A stretch of DNA of 63,028 bases, the filler included, from Collodictyon triciliatum (taxonomy: Eukaryota), in assembly GCA_043381765.1 (NCBI GenBank). It is 55 parts of 55 records of this genome, joined end to end, with 100 filler letters (N's around TTAATTAATTAA, not from the genome) between each part and the next. Parts side by side here need not be neighbours in the genome. Positions count along the whole stretch, not along the records: positions 6,916 to 7,967 come from JBHJMP010012516.1; 54 more parts are not named here. One strand, 5' to 3'. Below, one piece after another: positions 6,918 through 7,940 of this stretch (position 1 is the first letter of the stretch; the number at the start of each line of letters is the position of its first letter). The translations under genes were made by a program, and so were the position numbers. Below the pieces are notes generated by a model. The model was not told where the DNA came from and ran no database searches. It worked only from the letters and a program-made list of their open reading frames with translations.

Positions 6918-7940
6918 AGCTATACTCTTTCAAATATTCATATGAATATTAACTACATTCAAACTGAGCCTAGCTATAACAATGCACTTTCCCAATATTT
7001 GGTTTCCAACAATTTGCAGATTCCAATTGAAACTTATTTTATGACCCAATTCCCAATTTCACGAGGACAAAATGGTTGGGTTACTCAGAATATTTCGGTT
7101 CAGTACTCAAACATTAACAGTATTTATCTTATTTTTACACGAAATACAGAGCAGGGTACTGTTGCATACCTAGGTACTGACCGCATGCATGCTATTGAGG
7201 GACTTTCACAAGCCCGTTTAACAGTCAATGGTAAAGTTTTGCCAAGTGTACCGATTCAGTTCCAAAATCCTGGGTATCTTACTTATCCAGATTCTACAGT
7301 ATCCATATCTAATACAACTAATGGATTACTTACTTCCGGAGTAAATGGACAAGCTCTATGCCAACAACCAGAGGCCCTTAATTATTTAATGAAAGCGTTG
7401 GGATATAACACATCAGCTGAAATGCTAGGACAGGTTAATTTCCCAGTTGTTGATGCGTCTCCTTTACTTTTAACATCTCCTACCGCTGCCAATGGCAATA
7501 ATGTACAGTCTATTTATAATAAAGTTGGAGCCGGTGCGTTTTATGCATCAAATAAGGCGGTTCATCAGTTTATGTTACAGTCAGCTGCAGATACTTCAAG
7601 TACCCCATCAGGACGGACTTTAAATCCGTTTTCAAATGAAGAAATATTTTGGAAAACTCCGACTATGTTTGCGTTAGGGTGGACTATGACCCGCTCAGAT
7701 TATTCAGACGAATTTGAGTTGTCAGGATATAACGCATCATCAAATTCAGGTATCGTCCAGGTCGGACTTCAGTTTGGAGCAGCTTGTAAAGATGCGAAAC
7801 GTGTAACTGCGGCTGCCGCAGCTGCGGCTTCTGCAGCATTATCTTCAGTGACACCCATTGATAACTATACCTGCTGGGTCATCATCGAGCACACTCGTGT
7901 GTTGGATATTGGCAAAGACAATGCCCAGGTACTTTACTAA
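6918..7940 (+). CDS. Polinton-like virus major capsid protein (double jelly-roll), C-terminal part, 5'-partial
   Basis: Intronless 340-codon frame open from the contig edge. Motifs YTLSNIHMNINYIQ..Y..AL..L.IPIETY, NINSIYLIF, LTVNGKVLPS.PI, FALG, LSGYN..IVQVGLQF and terminal IIEHTRVLDI..QVLY* match the beta-strand pattern of the second jelly-roll of PLV-type capsids. Confidence 0.75.
   Translation, partial: SYTLSNIHMNINYIQTEPSYNNALSQYLVSNNLQIPIETYFMTQFPISRGQNGWVTQNISVQYSNINSIYLIFTRNTEQGTVAYLGTDRMHAIEGLSQARLTVNGKVLPSVPIQFQNPGYLTYPDSTVSISNTTNGLLTSGVNGQALCQQPEALNYLMKALGYNTSAEMLGQVNFPVVDASPLLLTSPTAANGNNVQSIYNKVGAGAFYASNKAVHQFMLQSAADTSSTPSGRTLNPFSNEEIFWKTPTMFALGWTMTRSDYSDEFELSGYNASSNSGIVQVGLQFGAACKDAKRVTAAAAAAASAALSSVTPIDNYTCWVIIEHTRVLDIGKDNAQVLY

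Follow-up and report, generated by a model that had tools for sequence, protein, structure and literature searches.

The window analysed here, a stretch of 63,028 bases from the Collodictyon triciliatum assembly GCA_043381765.1, contains at positions 6918-7940 an open reading frame (ORF) that probably encodes jelly roll 2 of a 585-amino-acid (aa) vertical double jelly-roll (DJR) major capsid protein (MCP) from a small freshwater double-stranded DNA (dsDNA) virus of the Polinton-like virus (PLV) type. The surroundings of this frame have to be read with care. A scan for runs of N shows that the window is made up of 55 segments, each 1042-1065 bp long and arranged according to size, between which lie 54 linkers of the form N50-TTAATTAATTAA-N50 (for example at 6816-6915 and 7968-8067), and the GC content of the segments spans 0.198 to 0.548. 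Adjacent segments are unrelated contigs; intron density, adjacent genes and host context are therefore unreadable from the window, and because it consists of joined contigs any finding that rests on adjacency across the linkers is unsound. An earlier description of the frame as intronless in an intron-dense genome (part of what we call the original prediction) consequently had no basis. The only real genomic context of the capsid frame is the contig at 6916-7967, on which 27 bases follow the stop codon, and the features on this contig are listed below with residue numbers in terms of the 585-aa homologue.

6916-7967: contig with the capsid frame, 1052 bp, GC 0.39, artificial N/TTAATTAATTAA/N linkers on both sides
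6918-7940, + strand: open frame of 340 codons, stop codon at 7938-7940
6942-6944, + strand: first ATG in frame (332 aa from there), only start-like, being the invariant internal Met254 of the 585-aa homologue
7236-7256, + strand: VLPSVPI
7257-7664, + strand: 136-aa region from VLPSVPI to MFALG, residues 359-494, studied by secondary structure, by its lengths across 44 relatives and by the proportion of non-synonymous differences (pN)
7368-7400, + strand: conserved alpha-helix, residues 396-406, within QPEALNYLMKALG, kept in 35%-identical relatives too
7665-7679, + strand: MFALG
7722-7733, + strand: SGYN, with Ser514-Gly515 invariant in the close alignment and Gly515 in at least 90% of 44 sequences
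7776-7865, + strand: 30-aa clade-specific insert, residues 532-561, a modelled beta-hairpin (strands 533-543 and 551-556) between the last two core strands
7809-7838, + strand: Ala run (7 Ala, Ser, 2 Ala) in mixed GCN codons
7890-7910, + strand: HTRVLDI (HxRxLxI), within the last long beta-strand of jelly roll 2, residues 562-576

The frame is not a chance opening, as 340 stop-free codons have a probability of 3.8e-10 at the base composition of the contig, and the opposite strand of the same contig has no ORF of at least 80 aa. It is open from position 6918, two bases inside the contig, and since it reaches the contig's 5' edge the gene is cut at its 5' end and is not the 340-codon gene that it had been taken for. 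What is missing can be read from P0002, a 585-aa protein from public metagenomes whose C-terminal part is 100% identical to the window ORF over 340/340 aa, the window ORF being residues 246-585 of the P0002 frame; all but one of the 16 homologues found have lengths of 532-595 aa. It is only the end of the 1052-bp contig that deprives the window ORF of the N-terminal jelly roll. A tblastn search of the window with 111 stop-to-stop ORFs of at least 60 aa, taken from eight metagenome loci (L001-L008) that carry capsid homologues, gave real matches only for capsid ORFs, all at 6918-7937, together with four more matches, on the minus strand of 6918-7937, from ORFs that run antisense inside the capsid genes of the loci. 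It follows that the missing N-terminal half, the packaging ATPase and the penton protein of the window virus are absent from the window. The two terminal motifs named at the outset, SGxN and HxRxLxI, were correctly seen and correspond to the SGYN and HTRVLDI of the list.

That the protein has the DJR capsid fold is, in our judgement, practically certain. A first AlphaFold2 model, based on 15 close sequences, reached a predicted local distance difference test (pLDDT) score of 50.1 and was not used for the fold search, and the model built on a 44-sequence alignment (A2) reached a pLDDT of 84.0 and a predicted TM-score (pTM) of 0.85. The latter model consists of two beta-rich, beta-sandwich halves (residues 20-225 and 246-584), and the window fragment starts almost at the first strand of jelly roll 2 (residue 246; strand 246-261). 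In the model the chain has the feature by which membership of the DJR group is recognised, two consecutive eight-stranded jelly-roll barrels that can be superposed on solved DJR capsid proteins. [quoted passage not shown] Against BFVD the best E value was 9.4e-21; of 50 listed rows, 47 name a capsid or capsid-like protein or are unnamed, the listed matches including capsid proteins of nucleocytoplasmic large DNA viruses (NCLDVs), virophages, adintoviruses and adomaviruses. Direct structural comparison of the model with solved structures gave the following Z scores.

Z 22.4: PBCV-1 capsid chain 8h2i_bx, 370 residues aligned, root-mean-square deviation 3.0
Z 21.4: faustovirus MCP
Z 20.3: SGIV MCP
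Z 20.1: PBCV-1 Vp54
Z 20.0: ASFV p72
Z 19.3: vaccinia D13
Z 16.6: Sputnik MCP
Z 15.8: mavirus MCP
Z 14.1: Sulfolobus turreted icosahedral virus (STIV) MCP
Z about 13-14: PRD1 P3 and adenovirus hexon

The ESM Atlas, which we treat as a source of leads only, points the same way: its own model of the sequence has a pTM of 0.72, the nearest clusters are 90-100% viral and belong to the families Capsid_N, Capsid_NCLDV, DJR-like and Sputnik MCP, and the TM scores are 0.63-0.67 by query and, by row, 0.76-0.84 in rows 1-5 and 0.45 in row 6. The check that had been proposed for the capsid call, AlphaFold followed by Foldseek, thus returned a jelly-roll fold with viral DJR capsids and no cellular protein among the listed best matches, rather than another fold or cellular best matches.

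Sequence searches see far less of this relationship. Pfam gave no family at E <= 10 for the window fragment or for P0002 and none for P0016, a further member of the group; PHROGs gave nothing meaningful for the fragment, only phrog_29957 at E 0.28; and sequence and profile searches of the PDB with the fragment, A1 and A2 gave matches at chance level only (E 0.041 and 0.27 for amine dehydrogenase, E 1.4 for a dynein regulatory protein). No match to P0002 was found by tblastn in a phage collection, and pattern scans of IMG/VR with A1, P0016, P0002, P0047 and P0060 gave no confirmed relative, a result of limited reach that does not prove absence. When a profile of 15 family members was run against 1.84 billion representative proteins, 36 were recovered at E <= 0.001, 20 of them at E <= 1e-30. 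Pfam was applied to 25 of these 36 representatives, of which 23 have no family and two, both distant, fall short of the Capsid_N cut-off of 24 bits, with scores of 19.3 and 17.0. The clade therefore escapes Pfam, the PDB sequence searches and the IMG/VR pattern scans that were tried, yet lake metagenomes from numerous studies contain DNA almost identical to it, and a profile made from alignment A2 could annotate such "hypothetical proteins".

The recurrence itself is broad. The 1052-bp stretch is present, whole or in part, in 20 of 24 listed sequencing runs, 16 of which contain at least half of the sampled words, and the runs with near-identical DNA come from 17 studies and include six metatranscriptome libraries. 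They are labelled as lake water, freshwater, plain "metagenome" (X2, X11) or "fungus metagenome" (X7, X14), and the best DNA match for the stretch is a lake-water metagenome, possibly the source of the window. Pieces from the RNA libraries X8 (six pieces) and X16 (three pieces) are all at least 99% alike to the stretch, and in two DNA libraries 4/7 and 3/4 of the pieces are at least 99% alike and the rest 90-95%. These library pieces are contigs and not reads, so that depth and coverage gaps were left unused for copy number or expression level. Presence in an RNA library is not equivalent to proven transcription.

Within jelly roll 2 the conserved core is interrupted by two variable elements, and it is these that the original prediction had described as unusually long loops. 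In viral jelly rolls the tight hairpins lie at the inner end and the long loops at the outer end, and DJR capsid proteins have a helix in each FG loop; we inferred the strand lettering used here from this rule of loop ends and from the FG-loop helix. On this lettering of the model, the segment ...ARLTVNGKVLPSVPI would be the E'-F' hairpin, the 136-aa region would be the F'G' tower region of jelly roll 2 and the 30-aa insert with the Ala run would be the H'I' hairpin or loop. The long stretch between VLPSVPI and MFALG does exist, but at 136 aa rather than about 150, and it is not a featureless loop: besides the conserved helix, the close alignment shows variable stretches around invariant islands at 397-419, 449-457 and 487-493. 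Its length across 44 relatives is 128-145 aa in the close clade, 84-146 in most others and 35-60 in six of the farthest. The poly-Ala run before the last strand was likewise rightly noticed, though it lies within a clade-specific insert modelled as a beta-hairpin. This insert is 29-34 aa long in 15 of the 44 relatives; of the others, 5 have 13-23 aa and 24 have 5-10 aa. The Ala run is particular to the window variant, other residues standing there in relatives.

Comparison of the window gene with four relatives shows that the capsid gene is under strong purifying selection and that its outer loops evolve faster than its core. The ratio of non-synonymous to synonymous substitution rates (dN/dS) is 0.07-0.18, with pN at 0.14-0.28 and the corresponding synonymous proportion (pS) at 0.55-0.75, a saturated range. 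By region, pN is lowest in the barrel core (0.08-0.14) and higher in both the long region (0.19-0.42) and the hairpin (0.23-0.47), with synonymous differences near saturation (0.44-0.85), such that non-synonymous evolution is 2.4-3.7 times faster in the tower loops than in the barrel core. Fast tower loops fit an exposed surface under host contact or diversifying pressure, and the contrast between a barrel that is conserved and tower loops that are hypervariable points to a candidate surface for host attachment. As a separate observation, the DNA library of run X2 contains a second strain, 90-95% alike elsewhere, in which about 250 nt are replaced at 7117-7365 (residues 312-395) by a stretch too divergent to align. 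The replaced segment takes in the D'E' region together with the initial variable portion of the tower region.

Genomic context for the gene is available from the eight metagenome loci already mentioned, which are 2.6-6.9 kb long and carry capsid homologues 33-84% identical in the best tblastn segment. We scanned 34 of their 37 ORFs of at least 80 aa against Pfam, the three left out being further capsid copies. In all three loci that reach far enough upstream (L002, L007 and L008) a Pox_A32 ATPase (50.2, 52.6 and 51.9 bits respectively; cut-off 22.8) is followed by a protein of 136-144 aa and then by the capsid gene. The copies of this protein, including those in three further loci, are as follows.

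L002 3218-3652, L007 3307-3741, L008 2694-3104, L003 149-556: 136-144-aa protein directly upstream of the capsid gene
L004 2-415, L005 34-375: 5'-cut copies of the same upstream protein

The upstream protein is rich in Gly, Ala and Lys, shares the motif ...DKA[ST]GG.LR..A..ATGG.SE.AL..YN.NK... and has no Pfam or PHROGs family; it is possibly an internal or minor component of the virions in this group. In L002, whose MCP is the 84% identical one, there is also a protein of 736 aa or more that matches DUF5906 (59.5 bits; cut-off 27.6), a VapE-like domain and PHROG "DNA primase" families, and these domain matches identify it as a D5-like primase/S3 helicase. On the downstream side of the capsid gene, four loci (L001, L004, L005 and L007) encode first a small protein rich in Lys and Glu, on the opposite strand, and next a protein of some 291 aa, which contig ends cut to 208 aa in L001 and to 300 aa in L007. 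The best PDB sequence match of its profile is weak (E 0.046) and falls on PBCV-1 P1, which we take to be the penton protein of that virus, and the ESM Atlas, again for leads only, places it near DUF5901 and Sputnik V18/19 clusters; by these sequence leads the protein is putatively penton-like. Two side observations concern the ends of loci. The final ORF of L005 (3652-4182) matches GDP-mannose 4,6-dehydratase (PF16363, E 2.3e-11) in its last 30 residues, which could reflect either a chimeric end of the contig or a viral gene for sugar modification, and the 5' end of L004 (1-100) translates to a low-complexity SSRRRHTRFRGVTGVQTCALP-like string, presumably a common assembly or adapter artefact.

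Other contigs of the window hold further ORFs of note. One, at 44995-45759 on the + strand of the segment 44830-45874, encodes 255 aa and aligns end to end with the penton-like proteins of L001, L004 and L007; BLASTP gives E 3e-4 to L004 and 0.008 to L007 at 19% identity, and it has in common with them an N-terminal L..DS...SG...F.F pattern and the C-terminal patterns N..N..P..Y / PL / VD..GN. It has no Pfam or PHROG family, and the shared patterns make it a probable minor capsid (penton) gene from another small DJR virus of the sample. The contig at 13821-14870 (+ strand) is open throughout, its 350 codons encoding a Sel1-repeat protein (PF08238, E 1.3e-14), and a 279-aa ORF at 43892-44728 (+ strand) carries pentapeptide repeats (PF00805, E 5.7e-12).

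The call of a PLV-kind MCP was right in kind, as the AlphaFold2 model, the Foldseek matches and the gene row of the relatives bear out. The gene order in these relatives is a PLV architecture, which fits a PLV without being proof for the window virus, and both the PLV membership of that exact virus and its eukaryotic (protist) host are presumed. Several observations weigh against this assignment. Neither Pfam nor the PDB profile searches give a sequence-level link between the capsid protein and any named capsid family, and at the level of sequence the sole bridge to one is the pair of sub-threshold Capsid_N scores in distant relatives. The window contig carries the capsid fragment only, and its context comes from relatives 29-81% identical over that fragment. 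No integrase, protein-primed polymerase, protease or factor of the viral late transcription factor (VLTF) type was found in the 34 scanned ORFs of these short loci, and neither a complete genome nor terminal repeats were seen in them. Set against the roughly 10-45 kb of PLV genomes, the longest contigs recorded, at 16,000 bp (P0002) and 24,938 bp (P0007), are no more than hints of genome size. The high Z scores against giant-virus capsids raise the question of whether the protein is instead the capsid of a small giant-virus relative (Mriyaviricetes-like, 35-45 kb) or of a true NCLDV, which we consider quite unlikely. P0002 has no Pfam match to Capsid_NCLDV (PF04451) or Capsid_N (PF16903) at E <= 10, whereas mriyavirus MCPs, according to PMC11253617, give highly significant HHpred matches to NCLDV MCPs; no VLTF3, VLTF2, RuvC or HUH domain is found in the scanned ORFs of the eight short loci; and the ATPase, capsid and penton genes lie within about 4 kb, as in PLVs and virophages, with the longest recorded contigs at 16-25 kb. 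Moreover, PLV MCPs are likewise recognised by way of homology to PBCV-1 and faustovirus, as described in PMC7805220. A virophage (Maveriviricetes) capsid protein, which would have the DJR fold in common with ours, is very unlikely, given that the Pfam virophage families PF21915 (Sputnik_MCP_1st) and PF22031 (MCP_V20_C) match neither P0002 at E <= 10 nor the window fragment, that the Z scores to virophage capsids (15.8-16.6) are 4-6 units below those to NCLDV-type capsids, and that no cysteine protease was found in the relatives' loci, whose context is incomplete.

A different question is the state of the copy in the window, as opposed to the identity of the gene. PLVs integrate widely in protist genomes (PMC10120064 and PMC12220804) and several other window segments carry eukaryote-like simple repeats, both of which would suit an endogenous provirus of a protist, as against DNA of virions or of replicating virus sampled from water. 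The earlier suggestion of an endogenous virus nevertheless finds no host junction or integration evidence to stand on: the frame reaches the 5' edge of its contig and the 27 bases after its stop leave no host flank, the window mixes contigs of GC 0.20 to 0.55, the best DNA match is a lake-water metagenome with near-identical sequence in runs of 17 studies, and no integrase was seen in the relatives' loci, integration elsewhere being still possible. We hold a provirus to be unlikely. Still less probable, indeed extremely so, is a non-capsid or cellular protein with a jelly-roll fold, such as a D13-like scaffold or a lectin-like beta-sandwich. D13 does appear among the structural matches, but it is itself a derivative of viral DJR capsid proteins; the capsid gene of relatives lies near genes for a packaging ATPase and a penton-like protein, and there is no cellular protein among the listed fold matches, with Atlas clusters 90-100% viral.

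If the PLV-type MCP behaves as solved DJR capsids do, three copies would form a pseudo-hexameric capsomer, and such capsomers would tile the facets of an icosahedral shell with the two beta-barrels of each chain perpendicular to it. Loops at the outer ends would build an exposed tower, to which the 136-aa F'G' region and the 30-aa H'I' hairpin of jelly roll 2 would contribute. By the same analogy, a single-jelly-roll penton protein would close the vertices and an A32/FtsK-type ATPase would package the DNA; penton-like and ATPase genes adjoin the capsid gene in relatives.

The main value of this analysis is corrective, in that readings drawn from neighbours, introns or host context are void and the "340-codon gene" is half a gene. 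Beyond this, it adds one well-supported DJR capsid clade to the large, poorly annotated PLV diversity of freshwater protists, a diversity of which Yutin et al. in 2015 are said to have catalogued the major capsid proteins. More tentatively, and with the balance of probability clearly on the other side, the clade (about 16 close proteins and 36 representative clusters) might represent a lineage of family rank, so far undescribed, among the small dsDNA viruses of freshwater, with a capsid structurally nearer to giant-virus than to virophage capsids. Such a lineage would be widespread in lakes and possibly transcribed, and its enlarged, fast-evolving tower (F'G' and H'I') would be a host-recognition module of its own.

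Among known systems, the MCPs of NCLDVs (PDB 8h2i, 5tip, 1m4x; faustovirus 5j7u; SGIV 8hif; ASFV p72 6l2t) are only 8-13% identical to the window protein, and about 200 of the 585 residues of the window-type protein lie outside the core they share. The window group also differs from them in having no match to Pfam Capsid_NCLDV or Capsid_N and, in its relatives, a neighbourhood as compact as in small viruses. The Mriyaviricetes (yaravirus and the Pleurochrysis endemic viruses) are alike in their small genomes, DJR MCP, A32 ATPase and origin in freshwater metagenomes (PMC11253617). The same source describes mriyavirus MCPs as structurally close to NCLDV MCPs, whereas the window MCP is without significant sequence similarity to NCLDV MCP families, and the VLTF2, VLTF3, RuvC and HUH endonuclease that it gives for mriyaviruses were not found in the 34 scanned ORFs of the relatives' short loci. 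With the virophage MCPs (Sputnik V20, 3j26; mavirus, 6g45) the group has in common the DJR fold and a similar gene set of MCP, penton and A32-type ATPase, and BFVD lists virophage MCP entries of 577 and 606 aa.

The closest comparison is with the PLVs, which according to PMC7805220 (Bellas & Sommaruga 2021) share the core genes for a DJR MCP, a single-jelly-roll minor capsid (penton) protein (mCP) and an FtsK/A32-type packaging ATPase. The same paper states that it is distant homology to PBCV-1 or faustovirus that reveals PLV MCPs. Like them, the window protein has a DJR fold that shows up only when remote or structural comparisons are made with capsids of the PBCV-1 and faustovirus type. The relatives described here also resemble PLVs in that a packaging ATPase gene, a putatively penton-like minor capsid gene and, in L002, a gene for an apparent replicase of the primase/S3-helicase type lie near the MCP gene. 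Replicases that join an archaeo-eukaryotic primase (AEP) or PolA to an S3 helicase (AEP-S3H or PolA-S3H) are common in PLVs according to PMC11071308, a replication module other than pPolB with an RVE integrase. The freshwater setting and contigs of 16-25 kb at most are further points of likeness. A point of difference is that the window protein has no sequence match to a named family, and PLV-type is accordingly meant here as a kind and not as a named group such as Gossevirus, GKS2 or VC20. Another lies within the wider superfamily itself, where the window clade, with a tower region of 128-145 aa and a 30-aa hairpin, exceeds its farthest relatives, in which the same elements measure 35-60 aa and 5-10 aa.

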